Below, piece after piece: positions 1,542-36,670 of a stretch of 55,240 bases of DNA. The position numbers and the translations under genes are program-made. The notes under the pieces are model-generated. The model did not search any database and was not told where the DNA came from. It saw nothing but the letters and a program-made list of their open reading frames with translations. Positions within the stretch are counted from its first letter, which is position 1; each line of letters starts with the position of its first letter. The DNA is from an uncultured Candidatus Saccharibacteria bacterium (GTDB lineage Bacteria; Patescibacteriota; Minisyncoccia; Minisyncoccales; CAYPLZ01), in assembly GCA_964555095.1 (NCBI GenBank), contig CAZKRA010000001.1:24964-80203 (forward strand), given 5' to 3'.

Positions 1542-2579
1542 ATGATATCATCGCTATTTAGCGTAATTAAAAAAGGAAAATATTTATTCGGTTTTTTAAT
1601 AATTACTCTTTTGATGGGGTATCTCTTTATTCAACCCTATCAACCTATAGAAGATGAAAAAATAGTTAAAAACTTCAAGCCTGTTTTGAAGGCTAGTAGT
1701 AATTTTGGACGTATTGAATCTCCAGAATTAATTTTAGTAAATAACAATAATATTTATCCTGCGACTCCTCCTGTAACAGTTGAGCCTCAAGTTCTTGGCT
1801 CTATTATTGGAGAAACTAATCAAGGAGAATCTAGCCCTTCTCATATAAAGAAGGGGATTAAAGAATATGTTATTAAAGAAGGAGATACTCTTTCTTCTAT
1901 TGCTGAAAAATTTAATATAAGTGTAAATACTATTCTTTGGTCTAATGAAATCAGTAAAAGCTCTACTCTTGCTCCAGAAGAAAAATTAACTATTCTTCCA
2001 GTAGATGGAGTTATGCATCTTGTTAAAAGAGGAGAAACTATTTCAGGAATAGCTGCTAAGTACAATATTGCTTCTGATGAAATATCATCTTTCAATGACT
2101 TAGAAGACGAAAGTGAAATTTATAAAGGAGATATTTTAATTCTTCCAGGGGCAAAACAAATACAGCAAGTTTATTATGCAAGTGCACAAAGAACTAACGA
2201 ATATAACACCTCTTTTATCCCTCCGACTACAGGTACAATTACTCAAACACAGCACGCTTATAATGCAATTGATGTGGCTAATAATTGTGGAACATTAATT
2301 GTCGCAGCAGCAGGAGGAAAAGTAATTGAAGCTAAATATAATAGTTGGCCAGCTGGAAATTATGTAAAAATAGAACACTACAATGGGTTAATAACAATGT
2401 ATGGTCATCTTTCCCGAATTTCAGTAAGTGCAGGAAGTAAAATAGGGCAAGGTGAACCAATTGGTTACATGGGATCTACTGGTTATAGTACTGGCTGTCA
2501 TCTCCATTTTGACTTATTAAGCACTACTGCTGCAAATCCGCTTTCAAAATATAATAAGGGTGATTATGTGAGATGGTAA
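1542..2579 (+). CDS. LysM-repeat / M23 family peptidoglycan metalloendopeptidase
   Basis: N-terminal TM. Two LysM-like segments (YVIKEGDTLSSIAEKFNISVNTILWSN; HLVKRGETISGIAAKYNIASDEI). M23 signature GNYVKIEH...GSTGYSTGCHLHFDL. Confidence 0.85.
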   Translation: MISSLFSVIKKGKYLFGFLIITLLMGYLFIQPYQPIEDEKIVKNFKPVLKASSNFGRIESPELILVNNNNIYPATPPVTVEPQVLGSIIGETNQGESSPSHIKKGIKEYVIKEGDTLSSIAEKFNISVNTILWSNEISKSSTLAPEEKLTILPVDGVMHLVKRGETISGIAAKYNIASDEISSFNDLEDESEIYKGDILILPGAKQIQQVYYASAQRTNEYNTSFIPPTTGTITQTQHAYNAIDVANNCGTLIVAAAGGKVIEAKYNSWPAGNYVKIEHYNGLITMYGHLSRISVSAGSKIGQGEPIGYMGSTGYSTGCHLHFDLLSTTAANPLSKYNKGDYVRW

Positions 2580-3560: not shown

Positions 3561-3569
3561 TGGTATAAT
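3561..3569 (+). promoter_or_regulatory. Extended -10 promoter element (TGGTATAAT) for the pilin-fusion operon
   Basis: tggtataat lies 104 nt upstream of the ATG at 3673. The -35 is weak. Prediction from sequence only. Confidence 0.4.
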
Positions 3570-3672
3570 CTGATTAAACACCTTACATTATCTCTGATGC
3601 TGATATAGTCTAAAGATCTTAATCAATTTAATGATTGTTCTGCTAAGAATGATGATTTAATTATTTAACAAT

Positions 3673-6039
3673 ATGAGTTTAATTAATAATAAAAAGAAGC
3701 TTCTTTTTTTAATAGGAATTTTACTAATTATTCCTTTGTTTCTTTTAGCTCAAGAGGTTCCTCTTGAGGTTGCTTACCCTGAATTAGGAGACGGGGTTCA
3801 ACCAGGCGAAGGAGGTGGTTTAATTGCCTATATTAACTATGTTTATAATTTCCTTCTTTTTCTTGGAGGTTTAATTATTTTTGGAGTTTTAATATACGGA
3901 GGATATCTTTATTTTATGTCTGGAGCTAATGCTTCTAAAAAGAAAAAGGCAAAAAAAGTGATTTTTGCTGCTTTTTTAGGAGTAATATTATCTTTTTCAG
4001 CCCATTTAATTTTAAATACTATTAACCCTGAAATAACAAATATAAATGTTAGTCAACTTTCTAATATTCCAGGAGAGGACTTAAAAGATAGTTCTTCTGA
4101 CTTTAAAAAAAGTGATCTAAAAGCTCATGCAATGCCACTTGATTCTGCAATTGAAGAGTTAATTGGAAAAGATGATTTTTTACCACGAGTTAAAAAATTA
4201 ATTACAGAAGATTTAAAAAAACATATTAACGCTACTTTTACTGTAGAGAAAGAGATTGCAGGACAAGAACATAGACATGGAATTGCTAGTTTTGGAGAAT
4301 ACAATCATTATTTAACCACACACTGTTCTTGCCAAAATTTAGAAGGACAATGTGGTCCACCTAGTGCTTCTTCATTATGTGGAGAACCAAAAGAGAAAAA
4401 TTGTAAAGCAGTAGAAGGATTTAAGGGAGACGATGGAGAACCAGATCCCTGCCCAGAAGATATAAGAGAAGAAATAAATAATAAGCTGATTGATTTAGCT
4501 AATTTTGTTAAAAATGAAGGAGCCCCAAATAGCGAAGATTTTACCGAATTTGAAACTGATCTCAAAACTCTATATGGTAGAATAGAGCAAGAAAAAGCAT
4601 TATTGCAGAGAAAGCTATCTGCCTTTGAAACCCTTGAATATAGTCTAACAACAGCTGAATGGCAAAAAAACATTGATACAAGTTCTACCTTTTTAAAGAG
4701 ATTAAATTTAATGTTAAATCCTGAAAAGAAATCAAGTGCAGATAATATAGTTAGCACTTATGAATCTAAAAGACAAATAATTGAAATAGTTCCTTCTATT
4801 CTTTCTGATGTTAAGTTTTCTCCTTTAACTTTTTATGAATTATTTTATGATGAGATAGAACCCCCTTTTCAAAAAAAGTTGCTAGCTGAAACTCTTCCTA
4901 GTCAAATACTCAGAATAGAACATTTTTCTATTTTAAATAAAATTGAAATTGGAGAGTTAATGGATAAGGTACGAGAAAATTCTATTGTTATGCTTGGTAA
5001 AATGGAAAAAATAAGCAATTTAATAGAAGAGATGGAGGGCCAAATAGCTGACATCTCTGAAGGACTTTCCCAATGTAATGATAGTGATTGTGATGTTACT
5101 TGTACTTGTATTCCTAACCCACTTGCTTTCTTTGGAGGTCCTCCTTGTATACAATGTTTAGGTGGCTGTAATGGGCAAGCGTGTTCTGGTGCACAAGCAG
5201 ACTTAATAGAGGTAACAAAAGAATTAGATAAAACAGAAGATCTGTTATTAAAAACTATTAATGACTTTAAAATGGCAGCTGATAAATCTCCTCTTTATTT
5301 AGAAAATACAGAAGATTCTCCTTTTGAAACTTTAAATTTAAAAGATGTTAAAAATAAGACTATTCAATGCCAATCTAAAAAGGGGTGGGATTTAATTAGT
5401 TGCGAAAAGGCTTTAGATAATCCTTTAGTATCAGAAGGAGGAAAAGTAATAACTTCTTGTCATCCTCGAGATTATTTTTGTGCTGAAACTAAAAGAGTGG
5501 TAGATATGGAAAAACCATCATTTTTAAAGCTATATGATCCTGGTTATCTTTCGGACTATTCTACTTCTTCTGAAAATGGTTGTCCTAGTGATTGGGAATG
5601 TAGTCAAGAAATTAAAGACAATCAGCAATATCAAGATGCTTCTGCCCCTTTACAAAGATTCTTAACTTGCTTTAGAGAAAAAATTAATAGAAAAAAAGAA
5701 GAAAATGAAATAGAAGATACTATTATAACCATAATTAATATTTCTGATCCTAATCTTTATAAAGAAGGGGCATCTTGTTCTTGGAAAGATGGGGGAGAAG
5801 ATTGCAGTTATCCTTTTACTCAAGAATTATTCAAAGAAAGAGTCTCTGCTCATTATGGGGGAGAAAGATGTCATTTACATATTAAAAAATCTTATGCTGT
5901 TCAATTTAAATATGATCCTTTTTATATTGATATTTTAATCAAAGCAGCCAATGAATGTTTAGCCCCTGTAAACGTTAATAGTTCTCCTCCTTATTTAGAT
6001 ATTAGTATAGCAGGAGCTTATAGGTGTGGAGTAGAATAA
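3673..6039 (+). CDS. Secreted VirB2/TrbC-like pilin hairpin (first ~125 aa) fused to a ~660-aa Cys-rich extracellular domain
   Basis: Signal peptide LLFLIGILLIIPLFLLAQE. Two-TM hairpin YINYVYNFLLFLGGLIIFGVLIYGGYLYF...KKKKAKKVIFAAFLGVILSFSAHLILNTINPEI. About 26 Cys in clusters (HCSCQNLEGQCG, CNDSDCDVTCTCIP...CIQCLGGCNGQACSG). The N-terminal module is paralogous to the one at 8958. Confidence 0.6.
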   Translation: MSLINNKKKLLFLIGILLIIPLFLLAQEVPLEVAYPELGDGVQPGEGGGLIAYINYVYNFLLFLGGLIIFGVLIYGGYLYFMSGANASKKKKAKKVIFAAFLGVILSFSAHLILNTINPEITNINVSQLSNIPGEDLKDSSSDFKKSDLKAHAMPLDSAIEELIGKDDFLPRVKKLITEDLKKHINATFTVEKEIAGQEHRHGIASFGEYNHYLTTHCSCQNLEGQCGPPSASSLCGEPKEKNCKAVEGFKGDDGEPDPCPEDIREEINNKLIDLANFVKNEGAPNSEDFTEFETDLKTLYGRIEQEKALLQRKLSAFETLEYSLTTAEWQKNIDTSSTFLKRLNLMLNPEKKSSADNIVSTYESKRQIIEIVPSILSDVKFSPLTFYELFYDEIEPPFQKKLLAETLPSQILRIEHFSILNKIEIGELMDKVRENSIVMLGKMEKISNLIEEMEGQIADISEGLSQCNDSDCDVTCTCIPNPLAFFGGPPCIQCLGGCNGQACSGAQADLIEVTKELDKTEDLLLKTINDFKMAADKSPLYLENTEDSPFETLNLKDVKNKTIQCQSKKGWDLISCEKALDNPLVSEGGKVITSCHPRDYFCAETKRVVDMEKPSFLKLYDPGYLSDYSTSSENGCPSDWECSQEIKDNQQYQDASAPLQRFLTCFREKINRKKEENEIEDTIITIINISDPNLYKEGASCSWKDGGEDCSYPFTQELFKERVSAHYGGERCHLHIKKSYAVQFKYDPFYIDILIKAANECLAPVNVNSSPPYLDISIAGAYRCGVE

Positions 6040-6088
6040 TTTTATCTTTATTAATTTTTTAAAATTATGAAAATGAAAAAAAAGAATA

Positions 6089-8950
6089 ATGTGGAGTAAA
6101 ATTTCAAAGAGAAAATTAAATACTTCTTTAATTATTGGAGCAATTCTCTGTGGTCTTTTGCTTGGTTTTAATGCTCATAGTTCAAAAATGCCTAGAAAAA
6201 AATCTGTTCTTATAGAATTATCTTTTATAAGTCAAAATTTAATTAAAATAAATGAAAATTTAAACAATCTGCTTAAAGATTGTAATTGCAGTAATTCTGA
6301 AAGTATTTGTGTGCGAAAAGATAATGCATGTGTTACCGTTGGAAACTACAAGAGCCCATGTGAAAATCCATTAGAAATTGAAATACAAAGAGCAAAATTA
6401 CAAAAAAGCATACACCAACTTGCTCTTTTAACTCGCTTAGCTAAGACTGAAGACTCTTCTCTTTACCAAGAAAGTCAAAAAATATTCAATATTGCTACAA
6501 GCACAATGAAGCAAGTAAAAAAATGTTCTGGGCCTGATGCTTGTAATGGTACCTGTTTTCCTGTTCCTGCAAAAGAACTTTGTGGAAGTCTTGGAGTAAC
6601 TAGAAGACAAGTTCCATTTAAATTAAATTTTGGAGTTGAGCTTAAAATGGAGGATGTTACAATTAGTCCAGTTGAAATTAGCGAAGTAGGGCTAAGACTT
6701 CCTGAAAGTATAGCTACTCCTGATGTTCCTGCTCTTTCCAATATTGAAATTGAAATCCCCGATATAATAATTGATGGATTTGAAGTAAATGCTGGAGCTT
6801 TAGCTCATGCAAAAACCCCTGAATCTGCACTATCAATAGAAGCCAAAGACTATGGATCAAGTCCTATTCTTGATGTTAACTCAATTAGCACTCCTCTTCC
6901 TTCTCTTCCTAGTTTTAATTTAACCTGTGATAATAGTGGTGCAAATAATATTTCCCATTGTTCTGTCCCTTCTGATATGGATACAACAATAGAAGATGAT
7001 GGAATTTCAAAGTTTAATGACGTTTCTCAAAAATGTAAAAATCTTTTTACTACAGAAGAAAATATTTTTTATACTAAATCAAATCCTTCTTATGATTTTA
7101 AAGGAGATCAATTTGGAATAATGGTAAATGCCGAGCTTAGTGGCGATCCTTACTTTGATGATCAAATCTCCTTATCTCTTTTAGAAGAAAAATCTGGAGA
7201 GGTTTGTAAGGGAGATTATGAGGTAAGTAGTTCTGTCTCTCTTTCTGATATTTTAAATAATATTAATCAAGAATTAGATTGTCCAAACTACATTAAAACT
7301 CAAGTAAAAGATAATCAATTTATAGCAGAATCTACAACAGCTCAAGAAGGAATGGTTGAGCTTAAAAATGAAATTACTATTAATGCCTCTGTTTCTAGAG
7401 GAGGACCAACTAGCACCCTTGTTATTGACTCTGAGACGACTAAAATGGTCCCTGGAGGCTGTTTTAATCCTGATCAAGTGTTTGATACTATCTCCAATAG
7501 ATGTAACGACCTTAAGGCAAGTAGTCCCTCTCCTCCTGCTTGCAATCTTAATGAAGACAATTATGATTTTTCAGAAGAACAAAAAATAGAAAATGAAAAT
7601 ATATCTTGTGGAGGAGAAACTATTACTAATAGCCCTAATCAGCCTTGGTGTAATGATTCTATTCCTAGTATCCCTAAGATAGAACTGCCTGATTTCCCTG
7701 GTTATGAAATAGAGCTTCCTGATTTTGTTCTATTTCCTTTAATAGATATACAACTTCCTGATTTTATTATTGAAGAATTAAAGACACCAGATATTGAGCT
7801 TTGTAATTTAAATGAATGTCAAGACATTGCTCCTGATATAACTTTTAATCCTCAATTTCCTAAAATAGCAGCTCCGATAATTGAAATTCCTCAATTTACT
7901 GCTCCTAAAGCTCAAATTCAAGTTCAGCTCCCTGACGTTGAAGGGGGAGGAACAGCTTACATTGATGTTAAAATGCCTGAAGTAAGAACTACTTCTTTTA
8001 AAGCTCCTTCAATTAACTTAGGAAACCTTCAAGCTCCTGGTCTTGATAATCTTTTTTCATTTGCAGAACCAAAGTTAAACGTTCCCCAGATTGATATTCC
8101 AACCCCTCAAATTAATTATTATTTTGAAGGCCCAAGCTTGGAAATTACTCCTGGATTAATTATTGGAACCTTACTTAATGTTTTTAATATTGATCCTACT
8201 CAATATAGCTTTTCGTTCTGCTTAGACATCCCTGGGCTGGGCCTTTTAGATCAGCTTGATCTTCCTTTTATAGAACTTGTTTACGAAGATTATATCTTTA
8301 GTTGGCCTGCCTTCCCTGAAATTCCAGAACTTGATTTTTGTAGCGATATTAATCAATTTTGTGCTACATCTACCCAAAAATTAGAAGGAATGAAAGAAAA
8401 AATAAAAAAGATAGAAGAAACAATAGAAACCCTTGGTCAAGATACCCTGGGAGAAAAACTAGAAGAGCTTTCAGGCGTATTAAGTCAAAAATTAGAAGAA
8501 AAAATAGAAGAAAAAATAGGTCTTCTAGAGGATTCTTTATCTCAAGAAATTATAATTACAGAAGATCAATATGCTAAGCTAGAAACTGAAGGAACTATTA
8601 AGATCCCCAGTCAAAGAATTAATACTCCTAATATCACAATAGATGAACTTAAAATAGAAAAAAATTATCCGGAAGAAATCCCTATCCCATGGGATACAAT
8701 AGATCCAGACTTGCAAAGCATGGTTCTTACTGATCCAATTAAATATGAAATTTCTGATATTCCTTTAAGTATTTTAAGCTGGAAAAAAGATGTGGAAATT
8801 AATCTTCCTTTCTTACAAGAAATAGATGTTGAAGCAAAAATAACAACCGGAGAAAATCAAGGTTGCATACGTCTTGATCCAAGATCAAGCATGGATTGTA
8901 GTCTTAACCAAAAGACTAATGAGTTAAAAAATATACAACAAAACCTTTAA
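6089..8950 (+). CDS. Large (953 aa) N-terminally anchored Cys-rich protein with short x-Pro-Asp/Glu-hydrophobic repeats and a C-terminal coiled coil
   Basis: TM LIIGAILCGLLLGF. About 27 Cys (DCNCSNSESICV, CSGPDACNGTCFPVP). Repeats IELPDFPGYEIELPDFVLFPLIDIQLPDFIIEELKTPDIEL. Coiled coil EGMKEKIKKIEETIETL...EEKIEEKIGLLED. No family recognised. Confidence 0.55.
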   Translation: MWSKISKRKLNTSLIIGAILCGLLLGFNAHSSKMPRKKSVLIELSFISQNLIKINENLNNLLKDCNCSNSESICVRKDNACVTVGNYKSPCENPLEIEIQRAKLQKSIHQLALLTRLAKTEDSSLYQESQKIFNIATSTMKQVKKCSGPDACNGTCFPVPAKELCGSLGVTRRQVPFKLNFGVELKMEDVTISPVEISEVGLRLPESIATPDVPALSNIEIEIPDIIIDGFEVNAGALAHAKTPESALSIEAKDYGSSPILDVNSISTPLPSLPSFNLTCDNSGANNISHCSVPSDMDTTIEDDGISKFNDVSQKCKNLFTTEENIFYTKSNPSYDFKGDQFGIMVNAELSGDPYFDDQISLSLLEEKSGEVCKGDYEVSSSVSLSDILNNINQELDCPNYIKTQVKDNQFIAESTTAQEGMVELKNEITINASVSRGGPTSTLVIDSETTKMVPGGCFNPDQVFDTISNRCNDLKASSPSPPACNLNEDNYDFSEEQKIENENISCGGETITNSPNQPWCNDSIPSIPKIELPDFPGYEIELPDFVLFPLIDIQLPDFIIEELKTPDIELCNLNECQDIAPDITFNPQFPKIAAPIIEIPQFTAPKAQIQVQLPDVEGGGTAYIDVKMPEVRTTSFKAPSINLGNLQAPGLDNLFSFAEPKLNVPQIDIPTPQINYYFEGPSLEITPGLIIGTLLNVFNIDPTQYSFSFCLDIPGLGLLDQLDLPFIELVYEDYIFSWPAFPEIPELDFCSDINQFCATSTQKLEGMKEKIKKIEETIETLGQDTLGEKLEELSGVLSQKLEEKIEEKIGLLEDSLSQEIIITEDQYAKLETEGTIKIPSQRINTPNITIDELKIEKNYPEEIPIPWDTIDPDLQSMVLTDPIKYEISDIPLSILSWKKDVEINLPFLQEIDVEAKITTGENQGCIRLDPRSSMDCSLNQKTNELKNIQQNL

Positions 8951-8957
8951 ACTATAA

Positions 8958-10286
8958 ATGTTTTCTTTTAAAAAAATTAATAAAATAATACTTATATCTT
9001 TTTTTCTATTTTTATTTCTAATTCCATTAACCGTATTAGGAGTTAATGATTTAGAAGTTGATTACCCTAATATAGGAACAGAGGCTCCAGCTGACACTTC
9101 AAATCTTCCTCAATATCTTTCTTATGTTTATAATTTCTCTTTCTATATTATTGGCTTTATTCTTTTAGGATCTACTATTTATTGGGGGGTTATGGTTTTA
9201 GCTGCAATGGAAAGCGCAGATAAAAGATCGGATGCATTAAAAAACTTAAGGACTTCAGCTCTGGGTGCAGTATTGGTTCTTACTTCTTTCCTTGTTTTAA
9301 ATTCTATTAATCCTGACATTCTTAATCCAAACTTAAAGGAAATGAACAAATCAGAACTCGGTTTAAGTTCTGGGATTTATTTTTGTAATTATAAAATAAA
9401 CGATATTGATAAAAATATAAGCAATTATGCTCAAGGATCAAAAGAAGAACGAGATAAAGCAGCACAAGCTCTTAGTGCAAAGTTAAATCCAGGAGATAAA
9501 GATAAAGGTTGTATCCACTTAACCTTTTCGGGAAACATTGCCAAAAAAATTAAATTTTCTGATACTAGACCAGGATTACCAGAGCATACTGTTTTTTCTC
9601 TTCCTTCCCGAAAAATTACAAAAGAAGGAAGTGAGCCTAATTATATTTATGGTGCTCTCTTCCATGAAAAGGAAAACTTTGAAGGAAGAGCAACCCTTTA
9701 TCCTCTTTCTGCAGGAAAAGGTACTAGCAAAGAAAATTATTATAAGCCAGATAGTTATGAGCTCAAAATTAAGAATGAAGGATATGAGACTTTTATTCCT
9801 AGCTCTGTTACCATTTTTAAAAAGATATCCTTGTCTGAGGACGAAAAAATTGACTCTGAAGTAAAAATTTACCCTTATCCTGGCTATAATAGCACCAGTA
9901 CTGGAAATGAATCAATTAGTCCTAACCTTTTAGGTGATTTAAATCACCTTGATAATGATTTTCAAACTACAATTTTTTTAGAAGATTTTAAATATAAGGA
10001 CGAGAAAGGCTATTTTAATAATAATGTTCTATCGATTAAGATTTCTCCTGGAGGCAAATATTTAGTTTTTCTTTTCCCAGAGGATGAAGAAAAAGACGTT
10101 GATAGAAGCTATGAAGACGTTTTGATAACTTCTCTTGGGATCTTCGGAGAAATATTAGGCCCTAAAATAATAAATAATAGTAAAACTGATTTAGCTGAAG
10201 ATTTGTATACAACTATAGACGATAATCGCAACCGTATTCCTGCTATCAATTCAATTTTAATAATTCCAGGGAAAAAACTTAATTAA
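8958..10286 (+). CDS. Second VirB2/TrbC-like pilin hairpin fused to a ~320-aa extracellular domain
   Basis: Signal/TM ILISFFLFLFLIPLTVLG. LEVDYPNIG...YLSYVYNFSFYIIGFILLGSTIYWG...ALGAVLVLTSFLVLNSINPDILNP aligns with residues 30-125 of the 3673 protein. Confidence 0.6.
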   Translation: MFSFKKINKIILISFFLFLFLIPLTVLGVNDLEVDYPNIGTEAPADTSNLPQYLSYVYNFSFYIIGFILLGSTIYWGVMVLAAMESADKRSDALKNLRTSALGAVLVLTSFLVLNSINPDILNPNLKEMNKSELGLSSGIYFCNYKINDIDKNISNYAQGSKEERDKAAQALSAKLNPGDKDKGCIHLTFSGNIAKKIKFSDTRPGLPEHTVFSLPSRKITKEGSEPNYIYGALFHEKENFEGRATLYPLSAGKGTSKENYYKPDSYELKIKNEGYETFIPSSVTIFKKISLSEDEKIDSEVKIYPYPGYNSTSTGNESISPNLLGDLNHLDNDFQTTIFLEDFKYKDEKGYFNNNVLSIKISPGGKYLVFLFPEDEEKDVDRSYEDVLITSLGIFGEILGPKIINNSKTDLAEDLYTTIDDNRNRIPAINSILIIPGKKLN

Positions 10287-10294
10287 ATAAAATA

Positions 10295-12643
10295 ATGTTA
10301 TTTAAAGAAAGATTTAACAGCTTAATATCTCTTATCTCAAACCATATTAAAAAATTTAGCCTCCTACTGCTTTTTGGCTTATTTGTTCCTTTTTTAGCTT
10401 TTGCTGATTGGGGTCTCGAAACCTTATTCAATGGATTAATATTTGCAGTCCTAAGGTTTATTCTTTGGGTTTCAAAAGGAGCAGCTTACCTTTCTATTGC
10501 TTTTTTTAACTATGTAACAAGCCCTGGTTTTATGCCTTTAAGTTATACAAATCCTGCAGGAAACCCTATAATTGAACTTGGATTAGAAATTACTCGTCCT
10601 TTTGCTAATTTAATAATTGTATTTTTTCTTATTATAATTGGTTTAGCTACAGCCCTTAACTACAAAGATTACGCTGCTAAAAAATTACTTCCTTGGTTAG
10701 TAGGAGCTGCTTTATTAATAAATTTTGTTCCCCTTATTTTAGGAGTTATTATGGATGGGGCTAATACTGTTACTTTTTATTTCTTTGAAAATATTGGAGA
10801 AGGAACTACTATTCTTCAAAACAATCTTTTAGATCTGGGGGGAGGATCATTTGAACCCAGTGGTGGAGAAAAGGTAACTCCTTCTCTTCTTTATAGAGCT
10901 GTAGTCGCTATTGCCTTTTATGCTTTTGTTGCTTGGACATTCTTTATTTATGCCTTTATCTTTTTTATCCGTTATATATATATTTGGACCTTAGTTATTT
11001 TATCTCCTTTAACTTTTGTTGCCGGAGTTATCCCTGCCACAAGAAAGTTGTTTACCAAATGGTGGGAAGACTTTATTCACTGGGCTTTTATTGGTATTCC
11101 TGCCGGATTTTTTATTTATATTGGCCTCCAAATGCTTGCTCGAATTCAAGACATACTTCCGAAAATGGCAATAATACAAGCACAAGAATTTGGCAAAGCT
11201 AATGAACTACTTATTAACATCCTTCCTAGTATAGTAGTAATGGTTTTTCTATGGTTGGGAAGTAAAGAGGTAAAAAAGTTAGCATCTGATGGAGCAAGCG
11301 TTGCAATAGGAGCAGCAGGAGCCATAGCTACAGGCGGTGCCTCAGCTGCAGCATCAGCTGGGAATTGGTTTGGAAAGAAAATAAGATCTTCTAAAGTTGG
11401 TCAAGGAGTTGCAAGCAAAGGAGAAAAGTGGGAAACCGTAACAGGGAAGAAAGGTACAAAAACTTTCCATCGCTATGCCACTCGCCCACTTGGTAAAAAA
11501 ATGAAGGATATTGCTTCTGATAAAGATGATTATCATAGCGGAAAAGAAGAAATTAAAGGAGAAGATCTTTCTGATCAGCTTTATTCTATTCTCCAAGCAA
11601 CTGGAACAGACAGAGAGGGTAAAATTGCTCAATTTTTGGAAGAACGAGGAGAGAAGGGAAGAAAAATTTTAGAAAAAAAGATAGAAAAAGAGGATATAGT
11701 AAAAGTACGTGAAAAAGCTGGAAAGATGGAAGATAAATCTGCAACCAAGAAAATAGATCAATCTTTTGCTAAGATACTAGCTAAGGCTGAAGGAAAGGAT
11801 GATGATAGCTTATTTAATAAATTTAAAGACATTCTTCACTCACAAACCTCTGAAGAAGCAAGAATCAAAAAAGATGATATAGAGGCTCTTGGAGATGAGA
11901 TAAAGGATGAAATAGTTAGCGTTAATAATATTACATTGAGTTCGGAAGATATAAAATATGCTGAAAATGCGAAAGAAGACACAGAAGAGGTAAAAAAATC
12001 AATAAAAAATCAGAAGATTCAAAAAGCCTTAAGAGGAGTAACAAAGAAAGAAATGAAAGAAAAAGGTTATAGAAACTACTTAGATAAAGTAGTTGATAAT
12101 GCAAAGAGCGAAGAAGACATTAAAGACCTTAAAGGTACAATAAAAGAAAAGAAGACAATTGAAGCTGTTCATAGATTTTGGACTGGAGACCAAATATCCA
12201 AAGGAGTAAAAGAACTAGGAAAAGACTTTCTTGAAAGCTTTACAAAAGGACTAAAATCAGCTGAATGGTACGTAAAAAAAGACTCTACAGGAAAAATGAG
12301 AAATATACAGCTCCCCTCTTATCTCATAAGTAATGCGAGTCTCCCACTTGGCACTCCTACTATAAGAGATGAGAACGGTAATGAAATTAATAATAAAAAA
12401 GAGTTAAGGGCTATGAGCCAAAACCCAAATACAGGCTCTTCTTCTAGTTCTTCTCAATCTAGTTCTAAGAGTTCTTCTCAATCTAGTGGAGATAATACTT
12501 CTAAGAAAAAAACATCGAAGAGACGACGCGCAGCAGGAACTAAAAAATCTAGTAAAACCTCTCGTTCTAGAGGAGGGTTTGGATCATCAAAAAAGAATAA
12601 ATCAGATGAGAAAGAAGGGGGAAGAGAAAGAGGAACTCTTTGA
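10295..12643 (+). CDS. Polytopic membrane protein, VirB6/TrbL-like by position and topology, with a ~440-aa hydrophilic C-terminal tail
   Basis: About 7-8 TM helices in the first ~340 aa, then a Gly/Ala-rich segment, then a Lys/Glu-rich tail. The tail ends in poly-Ser and a basic stretch (SSSSSSQSSSKSSSQSS...KKKTSKRRRAAGTKKSSK). The assignment is an inference from context. Confidence 0.45.
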   Translation: MLFKERFNSLISLISNHIKKFSLLLLFGLFVPFLAFADWGLETLFNGLIFAVLRFILWVSKGAAYLSIAFFNYVTSPGFMPLSYTNPAGNPIIELGLEITRPFANLIIVFFLIIIGLATALNYKDYAAKKLLPWLVGAALLINFVPLILGVIMDGANTVTFYFFENIGEGTTILQNNLLDLGGGSFEPSGGEKVTPSLLYRAVVAIAFYAFVAWTFFIYAFIFFIRYIYIWTLVILSPLTFVAGVIPATRKLFTKWWEDFIHWAFIGIPAGFFIYIGLQMLARIQDILPKMAIIQAQEFGKANELLINILPSIVVMVFLWLGSKEVKKLASDGASVAIGAAGAIATGGASAAASAGNWFGKKIRSSKVGQGVASKGEKWETVTGKKGTKTFHRYATRPLGKKMKDIASDKDDYHSGKEEIKGEDLSDQLYSILQATGTDREGKIAQFLEERGEKGRKILEKKIEKEDIVKVREKAGKMEDKSATKKIDQSFAKILAKAEGKDDDSLFNKFKDILHSQTSEEARIKKDDIEALGDEIKDEIVSVNNITLSSEDIKYAENAKEDTEEVKKSIKNQKIQKALRGVTKKEMKEKGYRNYLDKVVDNAKSEEDIKDLKGTIKEKKTIEAVHRFWTGDQISKGVKELGKDFLESFTKGLKSAEWYVKKDSTGKMRNIQLPSYLISNASLPLGTPTIRDENGNEINNKKELRAMSQNPNTGSSSSSSQSSSKSSSQSSGDNTSKKKTSKRRRAAGTKKSSKTSRSRGGFGSSKKNKSDEKEGGRERGTL

Positions 12644-12671
12644 TCGTAATTTTGATTGAATCTAAAAAAAG

Positions 12672-12699
12672 AAAAAGAGGGAATTTTCCCTCTTTTTTT
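12672..12699. terminator. Bidirectional rho-independent terminator between convergent genes
   Basis: gagggaa-tt-ttccctc palindrome flanked by an A-run and a T-run. Confidence 0.65.
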
Positions 12700-12700
12700 A

Positions 12701-14077
12701 TTATTTAAGTCCTGCTTTTAGAGCTGCGATAATCCCTGTTAGTCCACTTTCTGCACCTTCAATTTTAATTCTTTCTTCACTTAAGCTGCCTGTTTGAGCA
12801 CTGATATCAAGCTCTCTTAATTCTTTGATGTATTCTGTCATTTTTTCTTGTACTTCTTCATCTTCTCTAATTTGTTCTCTAATTTTTTCTTGTTTTAGTC
12901 CTGTAACTTCTGCGAGCATTGCTATTACTGGCCCAATTAGTTCTCTTGCTTTTTCTAAAGCTTCAAATTGTGCTGCTTCAGAATCTAATTCAGAAGCTTG
13001 CTTCTCTATTCTAGCATTAACTACATCTTCTGGTTCATCATAATCTTCAATACTTACACCTTGTTCTTCAATACTAAACTTATCTAGCTGTTCTTTTACC
13101 TTTTTTGTCTGTTCTAAGAAGTTTTCCTCTTCTTCTGTCAATTCTTTTTTATCTTTAAGGTTCTCTCTTTTTTGAAAAAGGGCAGCTAATAAGTCAGCAA
13201 GTACACTTTCTGCTTCTCTTGTTGTAGATCTTTTTAAAAAACTAGATATTGAGGCTTCTACTATTTGAATAACTTGATCAACACTTCCTGGAGCTCCTCC
13301 TGGTCCCTTATATATTATTTGATAGACAGATTGTCTAACTTTTGCTTCATTTCCAGGGGTAGGTTCACTAAGCCACTTATCCCCACCCTCTATTTGAAAT
13401 CTGAAAAAGGCTTCACTAACAAATGCAGCACCATCTTCAAAATCCATTCTAAGTGGTGCTCCGTCTTTTCCCTCTAGAATTCTTCTTTGATTTTGCCCTA
13501 GAGGTACTTGGTTTTTATTCTCATCACATTTCCCAAGAACCGGTAAGATAAAGGCTATACCCGGTCCTAGAATAGAAACTGGATTTTCAAATACTTCTAC
13601 AACCCATCTTTCTTCTCTTGGAATAGTAGTTAGTCCACTTATCCCAATTAAGGTAAAAATTAATAAGAAGAATATAGAAACTATTGTTTCTCCTAAAATT
13701 AAGAGCACCATTCCAGTTAGTCCACTTGCTCCAATAAAGCTTAGTCCTACTTCATATATAATTCTTTCCGTTCCTCTGAAAATAACTTCTTTGACGTCTT
13801 CATTTTTTATCCTCTGTTCTTTAGTAATCCCTCCCAAACGGGTGCTAATTCTAATTAGAACAAATAACACAATCCAAATGATTCCAAAAAAGATAGCCGC
13901 TCTAATAAACCCTTTTATCAATACATTTGAATTTATCTGGGGGAAGTTCAAATTTAAATCTGGTGTTTGTTTTAATCCTTCTTCAAGGATACCGTTAAAA
14001 GAAGTAGGGCCAAGTAAAAAGTTACCAATTCCTATAGCTAAAACTAAAAAAACTAAAACTGCTATTACTTTCTTCAT
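12701..14077 (-). CDS. Membrane protein with SPFH/band-7-like domain and acidic coiled-coil C-terminus
   Basis: N-terminal TM helices. ERWVVEVFENPVSILGPGIAFILPVLG resembles the start of SPFH domains. The C-terminus is Glu-rich. Confidence 0.45.
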   Translation of the reverse strand: MKKVIAVLVFLVLAIGIGNFLLGPTSFNGILEEGLKQTPDLNLNFPQINSNVLIKGFIRAAIFFGIIWIVLFVLIRISTRLGGITKEQRIKNEDVKEVIFRGTERIIYEVGLSFIGASGLTGMVLLILGETIVSIFFLLIFTLIGISGLTTIPREERWVVEVFENPVSILGPGIAFILPVLGKCDENKNQVPLGQNQRRILEGKDGAPLRMDFEDGAAFVSEAFFRFQIEGGDKWLSEPTPGNEAKVRQSVYQIIYKGPGGAPGSVDQVIQIVEASISSFLKRSTTREAESVLADLLAALFQKRENLKDKKELTEEEENFLEQTKKVKEQLDKFSIEEQGVSIEDYDEPEDVVNARIEKQASELDSEAAQFEALEKARELIGPVIAMLAEVTGLKQEKIREQIREDEEVQEKMTEYIKELRELDISAQTGSLSEERIKIEGAESGLTGIIAALKAGLK

Positions 14078-14149
14078 TTCTGCTCCTCCTTTCCCTTATT
14101 TTATTTGAGTGTTCTACCTTTTTATACCACAAAAATAAGTTTATGTCAA

Positions 14150-14181
14150 TAAAAAAGCCCCACACTTTTTTTGTATGGAGC
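14150..14181 (-). terminator. Rho-independent terminator of the 14185..14517 gene
   Basis: Minus-strand RNA GCUCCAUAC-AAAAAAA-GUGUGGGGC-UUUUUU. The 9-bp stem closes completely only on the minus strand, because two pairs are G-U. Confidence 0.6.
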
Positions 14182-14184
14182 TGT

Positions 14185-14517
14185 TTATTTGCTAGCAAAA
14201 TATCCTACAATTAATCCTACTAGAAGAATAATTTCAAAGAAGATATCTCGAATATATTTTAAAGAGCCAGAAACGTTAAGCTCTCTTCCTAAATTTGCAT
14301 AAAGTCTGCTCATTGTTATATCAATCTGATGAATAAATAGCCCTAATCTTATCCTTAATTCATAACTTTTAAAAGAAGCAATTACAATAATGTAAGCAAC
14401 CAGAAAAAAGATAAGCATCTTTATAAATGAAGTAAAAGATCTTTCTTCATCTTTAAGATAATTTTTTATCCCTATCCAAATAATTAGTAAAGCAATAACG
14501 ATTCCTACATAAATCAT
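14185..14517 (-). CDS. Small membrane protein (about 3 TM), unknown function
   Basis: Hydrophobic segments MIYVGIVIALLIIWIG, MLIFFLVAYIIVIASF, IFFEIILLVGLIVGYF. Followed by its own terminator. Confidence 0.5.
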   Translation of the reverse strand: MIYVGIVIALLIIWIGIKNYLKDEERSFTSFIKMLIFFLVAYIIVIASFKSYELRIRLGLFIHQIDITMSRLYANLGRELNVSGSLKYIRDIFFEIILLVGLIVGYFASK

Positions 14518-14617
14518 TCTATTTCTCTCCTTTCCTTTTTTGATTTTAATTAACTAAGTTAAAGTATACTATAAAATTAGTTTTTGTCAAGAATTTATTG
14601 TTTGCTTTTATTTAGAA

Positions 14618-14625
14618 TGTATAAT
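14618..14625 (+). promoter_or_regulatory. Extended -10 promoter (TGTATAAT) ahead of 14672
   Basis: tgtataat lies 46 nt upstream of the ATG. A strong AAGGAGG Shine-Dalgarno sits at about 14658-14664. Confidence 0.45.
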
Positions 14626-14671
14626 ATTTATAAAATAGTACATAAAACTAATAAAAAAGGAGGCGAAGTAT

Positions 14672-15085
14672 ATGTTTACAGTTTGGCTTAAAGAAGATGT
14701 TAATTTAGAAGAAGTCAAAGAAAATATTGTAACAAAGTTAGAAATAGAAAAAGATGATTTAACTAATAAGAAAAAAATTATTATTGACAAAGATCCCCTT
14801 GCTCTTCCTTTCAATTTGCCAATTCCTAAAAGATTTGTTGATTGCATAGTTTTTGAAGCTAAAATACCACTTCACGAGAGTTTTCACGAAGAAGTTGCAG
14901 GCACCTATAAAAGAGAGAAAGATGGAACACTAGCTAAAATAGAACCTAAAGAAGTAGATGTAAGAAAACGAAAGATTTCCATACAGGCATCTACTATTAA
15001 AGGCATTGCTGAAACATATTCCTATTTTCTTGGAAATAATTATAGCCTTTTTCATTCAAAATGGACTCGTATTGAAAAACTTTAA
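14672..15085 (+). CDS. Hypothetical protein (137 aa), monocistronic
   Basis: Good Shine-Dalgarno, its own promoter-like element and its own terminator. No motif recognised. Confidence 0.5.
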   Translation: MFTVWLKEDVNLEEVKENIVTKLEIEKDDLTNKKKIIIDKDPLALPFNLPIPKRFVDCIVFEAKIPLHESFHEEVAGTYKREKDGTLAKIEPKEVDVRKRKISIQASTIKGIAETYSYFLGNNYSLFHSKWTRIEKL

Positions 15086-15090
15086 ACTAA

Positions 15091-15125
15091 AAAAGCACAC
15101 ACTTAATTTAATGTGTGCTTTTTAT
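15091..15125 (+). terminator. Rho-independent terminator
   Basis: agcacaca-cttaatttaa-tgtgtgct followed by ttttt. Confidence 0.65.
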
Positions 15126-15192
15126 CCTTTTAATAAATTATTAAATATAGTATAATTGTTTAAAGAGAGTCTTCATTTAATTAACTTATTAT

Positions 15193-15597
15193 ATGACAGA
15201 AGAATATACTCAAGAGGAATATTGGGCACTTTTTGATAATCTTCCTGAAGAACTAAAAGAAGCCGTTGTTTCCCCCCAAACTGCTAAGGCAATTAGTAAT
15301 ATTTGTGATAAAAATAACATAGACAATGTTCGAATTGTTGCAGAAATTATAGGAGAAGTTCTTTTAGGGGTTTTATCTCCAGAAGATAATCTTGTTATTG
15401 AATTAGAAAAAAGATTAGATATAACTACTAAAAAAGCAAAACAAATAAAAAAAGAGGCTATTATGTTTATCCTTCACCCTGTTAAAAAGAGCTTAGAGGC
15501 TTTGTATGAAATTAAAATTGAATCTCCTTCTTTAGAAGCTAAAAATAAAATTAAAAAAGGTTTTTCCCGCGATGAATATAGAGAACCAATTGAATAA
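15193..15597 (+). CDS. Hypothetical soluble protein (134 aa), first gene of the PrgI/VirB4 unit
   Basis: TATAAT at 15151-15156 upstream. It lies 6 nt from the next ORF. No motif recognised. Confidence 0.5.
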   Translation: MTEEYTQEEYWALFDNLPEELKEAVVSPQTAKAISNICDKNNIDNVRIVAEIIGEVLLGVLSPEDNLVIELEKRLDITTKKAKQIKKEAIMFILHPVKKSLEALYEIKIESPSLEAKNKIKKGFSRDEYREPIE

Positions 15598-15603
15598 ATT
15601 TTT

Positions 15604-16020
15604 ATGCAATACAACGTTCCACAATTTATTGAAAGAGAATCTAAAATTAATCGTTTTTTAACATTTAAACAATTTATTTATATTATAGTAGCTGTTCTTA
15701 TCTCTTTGGCTTTTTATAAGACTTTTTCTTCTTTTGGAATAGGAATTTTTGTCTTTTTAATCACTGGAAGCATAGCTCTTGCTCTTGCTTTTGGAAAAAT
15801 AGAAGGTCTACCCTTAACACAGGTAGTAGTCAATTTTTTTAAATTTAAATCTAATTCTAATGTCTATCTTTGGAAAAAGAAAGAGGTTCCATTTAGAGCT
15901 TTTAAAAAAATGGAGGAGGTTAAACCAAAAGAACCAGAAGAAAAAGAAGATGAAACTGGCCTCAAGGTTGCAGGGAAAAGCAAGCTTAGCAGATTAAAAA
16001 CTAATATTGAAGTAAAATAA
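15604..16020 (+). CDS. PrgI-family (VirB3-like) small membrane protein
   Basis: The N-terminus MQYNVPQFIERESKINRFLTFKQFIYIIVAVL matches the characteristic PrgI start (Y-VPxFI-E-KI-G-LT-xQF). Two TM helices. Located upstream of VirB4. Confidence 0.6.
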   Translation: MQYNVPQFIERESKINRFLTFKQFIYIIVAVLISLAFYKTFSSFGIGIFVFLITGSIALALAFGKIEGLPLTQVVVNFFKFKSNSNVYLWKKKEVPFRAFKKMEEVKPKEPEEKEDETGLKVAGKSKLSRLKTNIEVK

Positions 16021-16104
16021 GAACCTGCTTACAAAAATACCAAATAGAACTGCATTCCTTATCTCACTCAAAAGCAAGAATTAATTTAAGCAAATTAAAT
16101 TTTT

Positions 16105-16707
16105 ATGCCAAAATCTTCAGCACAATCCTTTTTAGAAATAGAGCAAATTAAAGAAGGTTTTTTAATTTTAAAAAATAAATCTTTAAGAGGAGTTATAATG
16201 ACCTCTTCCGTTAATTTTGCTCTTCTTTCACAGCAAAGACAAAAGGCTATTATTAGTCAATTTCAAGAATTTTTAAATTCTTTGGATTTTACTGTTCAAA
16301 TAGTAATTCAATCTCGTAAATTAAACCTAACTGGTTATCTTGAAAAATTAGAAGAATTTCAAAGAAATGCAGATCAAGAATTATTAAAAGTCCAAATTGC
16401 AGAATATAGAAAATTTATAAATACTCTAATTGAAGAACAAACAATAATGACAAAAAACTTTTTAGTTTTAGTTCCTTTTGATCTGCATGGAATTCCAGGA
16501 AAAGAGATAAAAAAAGAGCAATTTGAAAGAGCAAGAACTCAATTATGGCAAAGAATGGAATTTGTAGTATTAGGGTTAAGAAGATGTAGTTTAGATTGTA
16601 GTCCTCTTCAAACACCAGAATTAATAGAATTATTTTGGACATTACACCACCAAAAGAAAGCTGAAGTTGGTTATTTCCCCGCAATTCCTTCTGAATTAAT
16701 AACTTAA
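16105..16707 (+). CDS. Stand-alone homologue of the N-terminal domain of Gram-positive-type VirB4 ATPases
   Basis: FLEIEQIKEGFLILKNKSLRGVIMTSSVNFALLSQQRQKAIISQFQEFLNSLDFTVQIVIQS resembles the N-terminal ~200 aa of Tn916 ORF16/TcpF-type VirB4 proteins as I remember them. It ends 11 nt before the ATPase ORF, in a different frame. Confidence 0.45.
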   Translation: MPKSSAQSFLEIEQIKEGFLILKNKSLRGVIMTSSVNFALLSQQRQKAIISQFQEFLNSLDFTVQIVIQSRKLNLTGYLEKLEEFQRNADQELLKVQIAEYRKFINTLIEEQTIMTKNFLVLVPFDLHGIPGKEIKKEQFERARTQLWQRMEFVVLGLRRCSLDCSPLQTPELIELFWTLHHQKKAEVGYFPAIPSELIT

Positions 16708-16718
16708 ATTTTAAACAA

Positions 16719-18503
16719 ATGGACATTCCTTTTTTAGATAAAATTTTAAATAAAAAAGAAAAAGAAAGGCTAACTACAAAAGCTGTAAATCTTAAAGATA
16801 TTATTGCCCCTTCTTCTATTTCAATAGGGTCAGACCATCTTGAAGTAGGAGAAAAAACAGCGAAATCTTTCTTTGTTTTCTCTTACCCTAAATATATTAA
16901 CACCGGATGGACTTCTCCTTTAATTAATCTTAATCACCCAATGGATATTTCCTTTTTTATCCATCCTATTAATACAGCTGTTATTTTAAAACAATTAAGA
17001 AAAAAATTAACACAGATTAAAGCAGAAATAACTGAAAGAAGAGAAAAGGGTTTAATTGAAGACCCCTCTTTAACCTCTGCTCATACAGACATTAAAGAGC
17101 TTAGAAGCAAATTACAAACTGCAAGAGAAAGAATGTTTAGATTAAGTATTTATCTTACTGTATATGGTAAAGATACAGCTGAAATAGATAATGTAGAAAA
17201 TACTTTACGTTCTATTCTTGAATCAAGAATGATTTATGTTAAGCCAGCTCTTTTTCAACAAGAAAAAGGATTTAAGTCTACCTCTCCTTACGGACTAGAT
17301 CAATTAGGTATACACACTCCAATGAATACTGCTCCTTTGTCTAGTGTTTTCCCTTTTATGTCTTTTGATTTAAGCTCTAACGAAGGAATATTATATGGAG
17401 TAAATCAACACAATAATTCCCTTATTCTTTTTGATAGGTTTAGTTTGCCTAATGCAAATATGACTATTTTTGCTACTAGTGGTGCTGGTAAAAGTTATTT
17501 TGTTAAGCTTGAAATCCTTCGTTATTTAATGGCAGGAGTAGATAGCATTATTGTTGATCCAGAAAATGAATATAGATTTTTATCTGATGCCGTAGGAGGT
17601 TCCTTTTTAAATATTTCTTTATCTTCTCCTCAACATATTAATCCTTTTGATTTACCTAAACCAAGAGAAGATGAGGACCCTCAAGATGTTCTTCGCTCTA
17701 ATATTATTAATTTAGTAGGACTATTTAGAATAATGCTTGGAGGATTATCTCCAGAAGAAGACTCAATCATCGATAGAGCTTTAACTGAAACTTATGCAGC
17801 AAAAGATATTACTGCTGATACTGATCCTGATCTCTGGGATAAACGAGTTCCCTTATTAGAAGACTTTGAAACTGTCTTGGAGGGGATGGTAGGAACAGAA
17901 AGCTTACTTAGAAGATTAAGAAAATATACTCAAGGTAGTTATGCAGAATTTTTTAATAACTATACAAATATTTCAACAGATAAGCCTCTTGTAGTTTTTG
18001 GAATAAGAGATATGGAAGATGAGCTTCGTCCTATGGCAATGTTTATTATAATGCGCTATATTTGGAATAAAGTTCGCTCAGAGCTTAAAAAAAGAATCTT
18101 AGTAGTAGATGAGGCCTGGTGGGTAATGAAAAATGAAAATGGTGCTTCTTTCCTTTTTGGGATGGTAAAAAGAGGAAGAAAATACTGGCTTGGTGTAAGC
18201 ACTATTACTCAAGACGTTGGAGACTTTATGAAGTCAGATTACGGCCAACCAATTATTACAAATTCTTCCCTGCAGCTTTTATTAAAACAAAGCTCAGCCA
18301 CCATTGACCAAGTTCAAAACGTTTTTAACCTTACTGAAAATGAGGTTCATAGACTCTTAGAAGCAGAAGTAGGTGAGGGCCTATTTTTTGCTGGCAAAAA
18401 GCATGTTGCTATTAAAGTAGAAGCTTCTTACACAGAAGATCAAATTATTACTACTTCGCCTGAACAAATTAAAAAAATTAAAAGAGAAAAAAATACTATT
18501 TAG
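16719..18503 (+). CDS. virB4: VirB4/TrbE-type type IV secretion ATPase (middle and C-terminal domains)
   Basis: Walker A FATSGAGKSYF, Walker B ILVVDEAWW, then GRKYWLGVSTITQ. The N-terminal part IAPSSISIG...FFVFSYPKYINTGW...DISFFIHP is typical of the family. Confidence 0.85.
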   Translation: MDIPFLDKILNKKEKERLTTKAVNLKDIIAPSSISIGSDHLEVGEKTAKSFFVFSYPKYINTGWTSPLINLNHPMDISFFIHPINTAVILKQLRKKLTQIKAEITERREKGLIEDPSLTSAHTDIKELRSKLQTARERMFRLSIYLTVYGKDTAEIDNVENTLRSILESRMIYVKPALFQQEKGFKSTSPYGLDQLGIHTPMNTAPLSSVFPFMSFDLSSNEGILYGVNQHNNSLILFDRFSLPNANMTIFATSGAGKSYFVKLEILRYLMAGVDSIIVDPENEYRFLSDAVGGSFLNISLSSPQHINPFDLPKPREDEDPQDVLRSNIINLVGLFRIMLGGLSPEEDSIIDRALTETYAAKDITADTDPDLWDKRVPLLEDFETVLEGMVGTESLLRRLRKYTQGSYAEFFNNYTNISTDKPLVVFGIRDMEDELRPMAMFIIMRYIWNKVRSELKKRILVVDEAWWVMKNENGASFLFGMVKRGRKYWLGVSTITQDVGDFMKSDYGQPIITNSSLQLLLKQSSATIDQVQNVFNLTENEVHRLLEAEVGEGLFFAGKKHVAIKVEASYTEDQIITTSPEQIKKIKREKNTI

Positions 18504-20484: not shown

Positions 20485-20503
20485 CTAATTAAATTGCTAT
20501 AAT
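20475..20503 (+). promoter_or_regulatory. dnaA promoter: -35 TTGTGA, 17-nt spacer, -10 TATAAT
   Basis: TTGTGA 20475-80, TATAAT 20498-503. The -35 overlaps the inverted DnaA box. Confidence 0.5.
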
Positions 20504-29985: not shown

Positions 29986-29995
29986 GTTTTAAATT

Positions 29996-36668: not shown

Positions 36669-36670
36669 AG

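Follow-up and report, generated by a model that had tools for sequence, protein, structure and literature searches.

What is a type IV secretion system (T4SS) for when it sits beside the chromosomal origin of replication and no DNA-processing gene accompanies it? This question is raised by positions 3561-18503 (hereafter the block) of a 55-kb stretch of DNA (the window) on contig CAZKRA010000001.1 of an uncultured Candidatus Saccharibacteria bacterium. An earlier note on this DNA had recognised, between rsmA and jag/yidC, the membrane core of a T4SS-like apparatus. Profile searches bear this out: the parts are of monoderm (MPF_FATA-like) type, and the block encodes a minimal cytoplasmic-membrane translocon (VirB4, TrsD, PrgI/VirB3 and an extended VirB6) together with VirB2-like pilin modules and a small conserved protein that we call the YRE-tail protein (Table 1; open reading frames, ORFs, are named by their first position in the window). 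Overall, the block is probably a chromosomal, vertically inherited T4SS of the Patescibacteria clade, derived from the monoderm MPF_FATA type, which has lost its DNA-processing module and whose output would be host contact and not conjugation.

The VirB4 ATPase matched the NCBIfam model conju_CD1110 (6e-111, 372 bits for a cut-off of 325) and Pfam P-loop_TraG (1.5e-28), and it carries both Walker motifs that had been read in it, GAGKSY and VVDEAW. Its best relative in the PDB is the monoderm VirB4 4ag5 (1e-43), the Gram-negative TrwK being far weaker (6.5e-6), and it is 24% identical to PrgJ of plasmid pCF10. The best 120 of 8,000 scored VirB4 matches were 70-91% identical, and the named ones among them came from Pacebacteria, Nealsonbacteria or Paceibacterota. 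The parts list of the earlier note (VirB4, PrgI, VirB6 and pilins) stands but omitted one gene, which encodes a TrsD-like protein. This protein covers positions 9-171 of the CD1110 model and the VirB4 ORF positions 178-734; since the two match successive parts of one model, the N-terminal domain of VirB4 is encoded separately here, as in pGO1. Moreover, trsD is a separate ORF in 79 of the 80 relatives that we compared, indicating that the split is ancestral and does not result from a frameshift. The assignment of ORF 15604 as a PrgI/VirB3-like protein also stands, with a match above the PF12666 cut-off, and PrgI is present in 74-76 of the 80 loci.

The polytopic protein encoded by ORF 10295 had been read as VirB6/TrbL-like. 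This holds at the level of the family but not for the window protein by itself, which gave no match to a TrbL model. Among 54 positional orthologues, however, 15 matched PF04610 (TrbL), the best at 6e-9, and a search of the PDB with the family profile retrieved TrwI/VirB6 alone (7o3v_F, E 4.5e-5); comparison with the single PrgH sequence of pCF10 was not significant (E 0.025). A positional orthologue was found in 56 loci. The protein shows about 6-7 hydrophobic segments within aa 17-324, followed by a hydrophilic extension of 440 aa, and the extension is highly variable, given that the orthologues span 458-1,263 aa. In the window, this extension (11330-12643) is Lys/Glu-rich, with an end that is Ser-rich and then Lys/Arg-rich. 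A word-indexed homologue search yielded 2 matches for the VirB6-like protein and 6 for the YRE-tail protein; both families were therefore built from the 80 genomic loci. The AlphaFold2 (AF2) model of the VirB6-like N-terminal domain, for which there were two usable database homologues, reached a predicted local distance difference test (pLDDT) value of 39 and was unusable. It should be noted that a weak TrbC/VirB2 match within the VirB6-like protein (aa 64-141, E 1e-3) was taken as chance because only 1 of 54 orthologues shares it.

Table 1. Features of the block and its close surroundings, in window coordinates.
Feature	Position	Strand	Length (aa)	Remarks
LysM + M23 peptidoglycan endopeptidase	1542-2579	+		upstream of rsmA; Pfam M23 2.9e-27, LysM 5.6e-20
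Surface protein with pilin module	3673-6039	+	788	signal peptide, N-terminal VirB2-like pilin hairpin (~aa 22-137), 650-aa Cys-rich ectodomain (26 Cys)
Secreted or N-terminally anchored Cys-rich protein	6089-8950	+	953	27 Cys; without pilin module; lineage-specific
Protein with pilin module	8958-10286	+	442	N-terminal VirB2-like pilin module (~aa 23-136), 300-aa ectodomain, not Cys-rich (2 Cys in protein)
VirB6/TrbL-like polytopic membrane protein (extended VirB6)	10295-12643	+	782	family-level profile evidence and transmembrane segments
Bidirectional terminator-like hairpin	12670-12699			13- and 11-pair stems, T-runs on both strands; between the convergent virB6-like and SPFH genes
Membrane-anchored SPFH/Band-7-like protein	12701-14077	-	458	Band_7 E 2e-4 (below cut-off) and hhalign
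Protein with three hydrophobic segments	14185-14517	-	110	shares a minus-strand unit with the SPFH gene, which lies downstream of it
Orphan ORF	14672-15085	+	137	AGGAGG ribosome-binding site, TATAAT 14620-14625, hairpin terminator 15095-15123
Cytoplasmic YRE-tail protein	15193-15597	+	134	first gene of the prgI-trsD-virB4 operon; conserved, unannotated
PrgI/VirB3-like small membrane protein	15604-16020	+		PF12666 2.5e-8, 34.8 bits (gathering cut-off 27)
TrsD-like protein, separately encoded VirB4 N-terminal domain	16105-16707	+		NCBIfam TrsD 1.6e-6
VirB4 ATPase, monoderm CD1110 (MPF_FATA) type	16719-18503	+		NCBIfam, Pfam and PDB matches; found in 81/81 loci
DnaA-box-like cluster, putative oriC	20424-20485			TTTTCCACA variants; upstream of dnaA, 1.9 kb from virB4 end

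Does such a system belong to the chromosome or to a mobile element? To the earlier note, the locus had looked more like a vertically inherited cellular machine than a conjugative element. The relatives used for the comparison were gathered by a VirB4 scan with one genome per species, and comprise 80 metagenome-assembled genomes of Nealsonbacteria, Staskawiczbacteria, Minisyncoccales and other Paceibacteria, whose VirB4 is 62-92% identical to that of the window. The synteny comparison that had been proposed for the locus revealed that the cluster keeps its place between rsmA and jag-yidC-rnpA-dnaA-dnaN. In essentially all long loci the order is dksA, M23/LysM, rsmA, variable surface-protein genes, virB6, the YRE-tail gene, prgI, trsD, virB4, further variable surface-protein genes, jag, yidC, rnpA, dnaA, dnaN and PBP1. 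No protein of the neighbourhood is better conserved than VirB4, whose median identity over the 80 loci is 67%, above DnaA (59%), TrsD (54%), DnaN and YidC (both 50%) and RsmA (43%). The fixed place in 80 relatives and a VirB4 more conserved than DnaA argue for a vertically inherited machine and against an integrative conjugative element (ICE), a view that the missing mobility genes also support.

Conservation falls steeply from the cytoplasmic to the exposed parts. Compared with the closest relative, L001, identity is 92% for VirB4, 86% for TrsD, 71% for PrgI, 59% for the YRE-tail protein, 56% for ORF 6089, 51% for VirB6, 42% for ORF 8958 and 23% for the SPFH protein. This pattern fits a motor that is inherited vertically and tightly constrained while the surface parts it serves evolve fast; it does not fit a mobile element.

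The earlier note had also reported no relaxase, coupling ATPase, VirB11, integrase, tRNA or flanking direct repeats, and this holds for the scanned 55-kb window. Outside the block, the Pfam scans covered window ORFs of at least 90 aa, with a few short ORFs left out. They gave no relaxase, type IV coupling protein (T4CP) or integrase, the MOBscan profile set not having been used, and no FtsK/VirD4/TraG-type protein other than VirB4 among the scanned ORFs. By tblastn, the pCF10 relaxase PcfG and T4CP PcfC matched nothing in the window, nor in the 10 kb on either side of virB4 in the 80 relatives, where integrases were not searched. The window contains no tRNA or Rfam match, and no att-like flanking repeats were found, the direct repeats present being AT-rich chance matches. 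The sole T2SSE-fold ATPase (29996-31315) was rejected as VirB11, since it is of GspE/PilB type (439 bits for GspE vs 62 bits for VirB11). Likewise, a PIF1/RecD2-like SF1B helicase at 51627-52928 (+), 33 kb from the T4SS, was rejected as a relaxase; its C-terminal part weakly matches the TraA helicase core only. The absence of a T4CP from 55 kb does not show its absence from the genome, because the 2025 survey cited below describes VirD4-like homologues elsewhere in most Patescibacteria genomes (PMC12102498).

That Patescibacteria have a relaxase-less, origin-proximal T4SS has already been published in 2023-2025, including its dnaA/ksgA/rnpA neighbourhood; the finding made here is correct and not new. 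By Wang et al. (2023, Cell; PMC10633639), a homologous cluster of Southlakia epibionticum, SEML1_0006-0019, is reported as essential for epibiotic growth, pilin genes included; the cluster resembles Gram-positive conjugative T4SSs and is described as having no recognisable T4CP and relaxase. Quiñonero-Coronel et al. (2025, Microb Genom; PMC12102498) surveyed 3,035 genomes and place Patescibacteria VirB4 in a monophyletic clade nested in MPF_FATA, with TrsD, PrgI, VirB6 and VirB2 (PF18895) near virB4, almost no relaxases, and T4CP homologues that are mostly distant. There, virB4 of Paceibacteria lies close to dnaA, dnaN, rnpA, ksgA and rpmH. A FEMS review of 2025 repeats this picture and notes that no T4SS before that of Patescibacteria had been reported as essential for growth of the bacterium that encodes it (PMC12857230).

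The locus resembles these systems in its MPF_FATA-type VirB4, separate TrsD, PrgI/VirB3, VirB6 and VirB2-like pilins (borderline for PF18895 here). It also shares with them a chromosomal place near dnaA, ksgA (rsmA) and rnpA and the lack of a relaxase or T4CP nearby; its placement in the clade comes from profiles and best matches, not from a tree. With the Gram-positive MPF_FATA systems (TrsC-TrsD-TrsE of pGO1/pSK41; pCF10) it has the CD1110-family VirB4 and the PrgI family in common; VirB4 is split into TrsD and ATPase as in pGO1, and the order virB6-virB3-virB4 is that of prgH-prgI-prgJ in pCF10. Unlike pCF10 and other Gram-positive systems, however, the locus has no T4CP (PcfC), relaxase (PcfG), PrgK-type hydrolase, PrgL/VirB8-like protein or LPXTG adhesin, and it has VirB2-type pilin modules, which those systems do not. 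Its VirB6 family is closer to TrwI/TrbL than to PrgH of pCF10. Moreover, Gram-positive conjugative T4SSs reside on mobile elements, whereas this locus is chromosomal and core.

What would the translocon act on? Two VirB2/TrbC-like pilin hairpins had been read in ORFs 3673 and 8958, and both are retained here. They are borderline in Pfam: ORF 3673 scored 26.3 bits on PF18895, just below the cut-off of 26.6, and ORF 8958 scored 16 bits (E 0.013), with an NCBIfam match to the Mbov_0395 pilin-like family (3e-6). Their N-termini are paralogous (36% identity, E 4e-17), and a clade-specific pilin hidden Markov model matched both strongly (1.3e-31 and 1.7e-29, respectively). The predicted topology of both proteins is a signal peptide, a first transmembrane segment, a Lys-rich loop, a second transmembrane segment and the ectodomain. 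On this topology the ectodomains would be extracellular, with which the many cysteines are consistent. It should be noted that the description of the region 3673-10286 as encoding giant Cys-rich proteins applies to ORFs 3673 and 6089 but not to ORF 8958.

The ectodomain of ORF 3673 (aa 141-788) has no homologue in the 80 loci or the PDB. ORF 6089 has no Pfam or PDB match, and its sole homologue among the 80 loci is in L001. The two giant ectodomains do not resemble one another, and neither has a homologue in any relative more distant than L001. By eye only, many short degenerate (I/L)-E-(L/I)-P-D-(F/I) repeats were seen at about aa 215-650 of ORF 6089.

Pilin modules are widespread beside the T4SS core. 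In a survey of ORFs of at least 70 aa, we found 144 pilin-module ORFs adjoining the core in 70 of 81 loci, upstream or downstream of it. They encode proteins of at least 300 aa in 124 cases and at least 600 aa in 42, with a maximum of 1,749 aa and up to 8.3% Cys; one relative's pilin-module protein bears InlB B-repeat, SpaA, Ig and fn3 domains. Because 124 of the 144 proteins reach at least 300 aa, the VirB2 module in this clade is mainly a membrane anchor for large ectodomains. This differs from the T4SSs described in the 2025 survey, where the VirB2 homologues are small pilins, often in arrays (PMC12102498); in the window and the 80 relatives they are mostly anchors of proteins of 300-1,749 aa. 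T4SS-pilin-domain proteins have been reported among the top-expressed unknown genes of Patescibacteria parasitising methanogenic archaea (PMC10936435). Separately, a family of Cys-rich secreted proteins (~840 aa) carries a pilin-like hairpin that is C-terminal and not N-terminal (L003:351-2894, L071:565-3099, L012:3341-5887).

The operon that encodes the motor opens with the YRE-tail gene. Its product has a six-helix domain, a disordered linker and a C-terminal D-x-Y-R-E-P-I-E motif that is invariant in the family alignment; members are ~130-220 aa long. The gene is present in 52-54 of the 54 loci having enough upstream DNA, and the order virB6, YRE-tail gene, prgI is kept in 51 of 52. In a library of 1.84 billion proteins, the family comprises 4,633 representative clusters (E≤1e-3), and the tail is retained in 138 of the 154 top representatives. 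The protein has no match in Pfam, NCBIfam or PDB sequences, and its AF2 model (pLDDT 73) retrieved nothing from the PDB by Foldseek at E≤1e-3. Identity with PrgF or PrgG of pCF10 was ruled out, hhalign being negative for both, and for this reason it is not the 'PrgF' of the 2025 survey (PMC12102498) either. The YRE-tail family and the SPFH gene described below did not turn up in the sections searched of the published accounts of Patescibacteria T4SSs (PMC12102498, PMC10633639), whose supplementary tables lay outside the search.

How could these parts work together? In established T4SSs, hexamers of VirB4 bind to VirB3 and VirB6 and supply the energy with which pilins are extracted and the pilus is built. 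By analogy, a VirB4/TrsD hexamer would dock on PrgI and VirB6 and would use ATP to pull VirB2-type hairpins from the membrane, then assemble or present them outside the cell, as in other T4SSs. Most pilin modules of this clade carry large, fast-evolving ectodomains, often Cys-rich or with adhesin domains. On this view the machine would make an organelle for contact with the host, either a pilus or adhesins anchored by pilin modules, perhaps together with a conduit for host exchange, and would not export DNA by conjugation. More speculatively, the invariant C-terminus of the YRE-tail protein might bind the ATPase, the protein then serving as an adaptor or regulator. The earlier note had called any function of this locus pure inference, which is still accurate; host contact or surface display, and not conjugation, is the likeliest role, as suggested by the conservation gradient, the homologue-less ectodomains, the size of the pilin-module proteins and the adhesin-type domains in one relative. 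The YRE-tail family, the large hypervariable ectodomains anchored by pilin modules, and the constraint on VirB4 exceeding that on DnaA are three handles that can be tested in cultivated Patescibacteria.

Several points weigh against a pilus-building, host-contact machine that has shed its DNA-processing module. Few pilin-module proteins (8 of 144) are of the classical size below 130 aa, and a canonical helical VirB2 pilus could not accommodate an ectodomain of 650 aa on each subunit; the large fusions may thus form the tip, act as minor subunits or simply be membrane-anchored proteins with no connection to VirB4 activity. The VirB6-like and pilin-module proteins of the window score at or below Pfam thresholds, and no VirB8-like or VirB1 homologue was identified within the block. 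A T4CP gene may also lie at another site in the genome, which the survey reports for most Patescibacteria (PMC12102498). What this T4SS handles, and how, is central to understanding how epibiotic ultrasmall bacteria live.

A more specific version of the proposal dispenses with a channel for soluble cargo: VirB4 would drive a machine for the membrane extraction and display of giant, rapidly diversifying, VirB2-hairpin-anchored adhesins of host specificity, with the YRE-tail peptide docking on VirB4/TrsD as an adaptor in place of the missing coupling protein. If true, both the accessory component and the mode of output would be new to T4SSs, and we consider this version distinctly unlikely as it stands. 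Somewhat less doubtful, though still unlikely, is a translocator of soluble cargo, effectors or nutrients, at the interface between epibiont and host, the pilin-module proteins being exported independently by Sec and merely co-located. Wang et al. proposed protein export 'or an alternative capacity' (PMC10633639), and the FEMS review speculates on a conduit for uptake from the host (PMC12857230). The varying position of the pilin-module genes on either side of the core and the quick turnover of the ectodomain genes would agree with mere co-location; what speaks for a functional tie is that pilin-module ORFs adjoin the core in 70 of 81 loci and that the pilin genes are essential in Southlakia (PMC10633639). 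Nor is there a candidate effector or T4CP near the cluster.

DNA import, in which VirB4 and the polytopic membrane protein would draw in host DNA as a nucleotide source or for transformation, has known precedents in archaeal Ced and Helicobacter pylori ComB, which resemble this locus in being VirB4-centred, without relaxase or coupling protein, and repurposed from conjugation. Patescibacteria have no de novo nucleotide synthesis (PMC10633639), and comF, recG and radA accompany the locus in the ABY1 class (PMC12102498). The similarity of VirB4 to Ced proteins is nevertheless marginal, at 54.9 bits for CedB (NCBIfam 5.8e-15; cut-off 700) and 21 bits for CedD (9e-5; cut-off 600), and the best model is the conjugative CD1110 and not CedB (372 vs 55 bits). 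NCBIfam models gave no CedA-like protein among the membrane ORFs, there are no ComB-type outer-membrane parts, and Pfam scans found no competence genes in the block. Moreover, the review states that deletion of comEC in Southlakia ends competence and not viability, whereas the T4SS is essential, so that DNA uptake for transformation does not explain this essentiality (PMC12857230). We hold DNA import to be very unlikely. A decayed or domesticated ICE that landed near the origin of this genome by chance is extremely improbable. VirB4, TrsD and PrgI are indeed homologous to conjugation proteins of Gram-positive plasmids and ICEs, and the survey considers an ancestral horizontal transfer from monoderms probable (PMC12102498). 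Against a chance insertion stand the identical site and gene order in 80 species-level genomes, the conservation of VirB4 above DnaA, the lack of integrase, att repeat, tRNA, relaxase and T4CP in the window, and a G+C content (0.28-0.35 in the block) that is not clearly distinct from the flanks and shows no clear compositional break.

The vertically inherited host-contact T4SS thus remains the reading that we adopt, and the rest of the block can be described around it. Its 11 substantial ORFs, whose coordinates agree with those read earlier, form a first + strand set of four genes (ORFs 3673 to 10295), a - strand pair in mid-block, a monocistronic orphan on the + strand and the compact four-gene operon that ends with virB4. 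To the three co-directional transcription units first described, a fourth has to be added, which lies on the opposite strand (ORFs 12701 and 14185) inside the block. Each unit had been credited with its own promoter and terminator signals: intergenic -10 elements, ribosome-binding sites and hairpins are visible by eye, yet the count of sigma-70-like promoter matches across the region is not above chance (67 vs 58±10 expected from shuffled sequences).

Four ORFs had been left with no assignable role. Two of them no longer belong there: ORF 15193 is the conserved YRE-tail family, and ORF 12701 is an SPFH/Band-7 relative, which matched a 20-locus family by hhalign (98% probability, E 8e-14), one member of that family, L017, scoring 54 bits on Band_7. 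SPFH-type genes are recurrent and not universal, occurring in 25 of the 54 loci whose upstream sequence is long enough; all 28 lie on the opposite strand (-), 25 of them between virB6 and prgI. ORF 14185 has a sole homologue in the 80 loci, in L001 (40% identity). The minus-strand unit has a strong promoter-like site at 14590-14563 (11/12 matches) and a terminator-like hairpin at 14182-14156. ORF 14672 does remain an orphan, with no Pfam match and no homologue in the 80 loci, including the relative with 92% identical VirB4, and is probably not part of the T4SS machine.

The block is embedded in core genes, as had been noted: a dksA-like gene, the LysM+M23 endopeptidase and rsmA upstream, and jag, yidC and rnpA (all -), dnaA, dnaN and a class A penicillin-binding protein downstream. 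Its end about 1.9 kb from the DnaA-box cluster was confirmed. The minimum of the cumulative GC skew, at ~20-22 kb, falls at this cluster; the strict Escherichia coli DnaA-box consensus is not enriched across the window, and the box-like sites of this cluster are TTTTCCACA-type variants. The LysM+M23 homologue adjoins rsmA in 35 relatives, and the survey associates M23/LysM-containing VirB1 candidates with virB4 in Paceibacteria (PMC12102498); the enzyme could tentatively be regarded as a VirB1-like partner in wall remodelling. The gene lies on the + strand in the window and on the - strand in relatives (L008, L012, L015 and others). Four relatives have a PrgK-like CHAP segment in the rsmA/LysM+M23 area.

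A conserved membrane protein of ~142 aa, a family without Pfam match, is encoded directly downstream of virB4 in 35 of 81 loci (e.g., L002:2126-2590, L006:6384-6851 and L008:11849-12370). Unlike these relatives, the window has no such gene, and virB4 abuts jag. Directly after dnaN, a Big_5 + Peptidase_C39_2 protein is encoded at 23406-24449 (+); with a homologue in just 1 of 80 loci, this gene is a lineage-specific insertion in the conserved dnaN-PBP1 junction. The GspE/PilB-type ATPase (439 aa; region 29077-31315, - strand) adjoins a Lamin-tail-domain protein and probably belongs to a type IV pilus or type II secretion system and not to the T4SS. Between 33 and 43 kb the GC skew is positive and unusually strong (0.26-0.38). 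A row of genes at 34781-38917 (+) encodes a PAS-PAS histidine kinase, a protein with a V4R domain and two stand-alone receiver-domain proteins.

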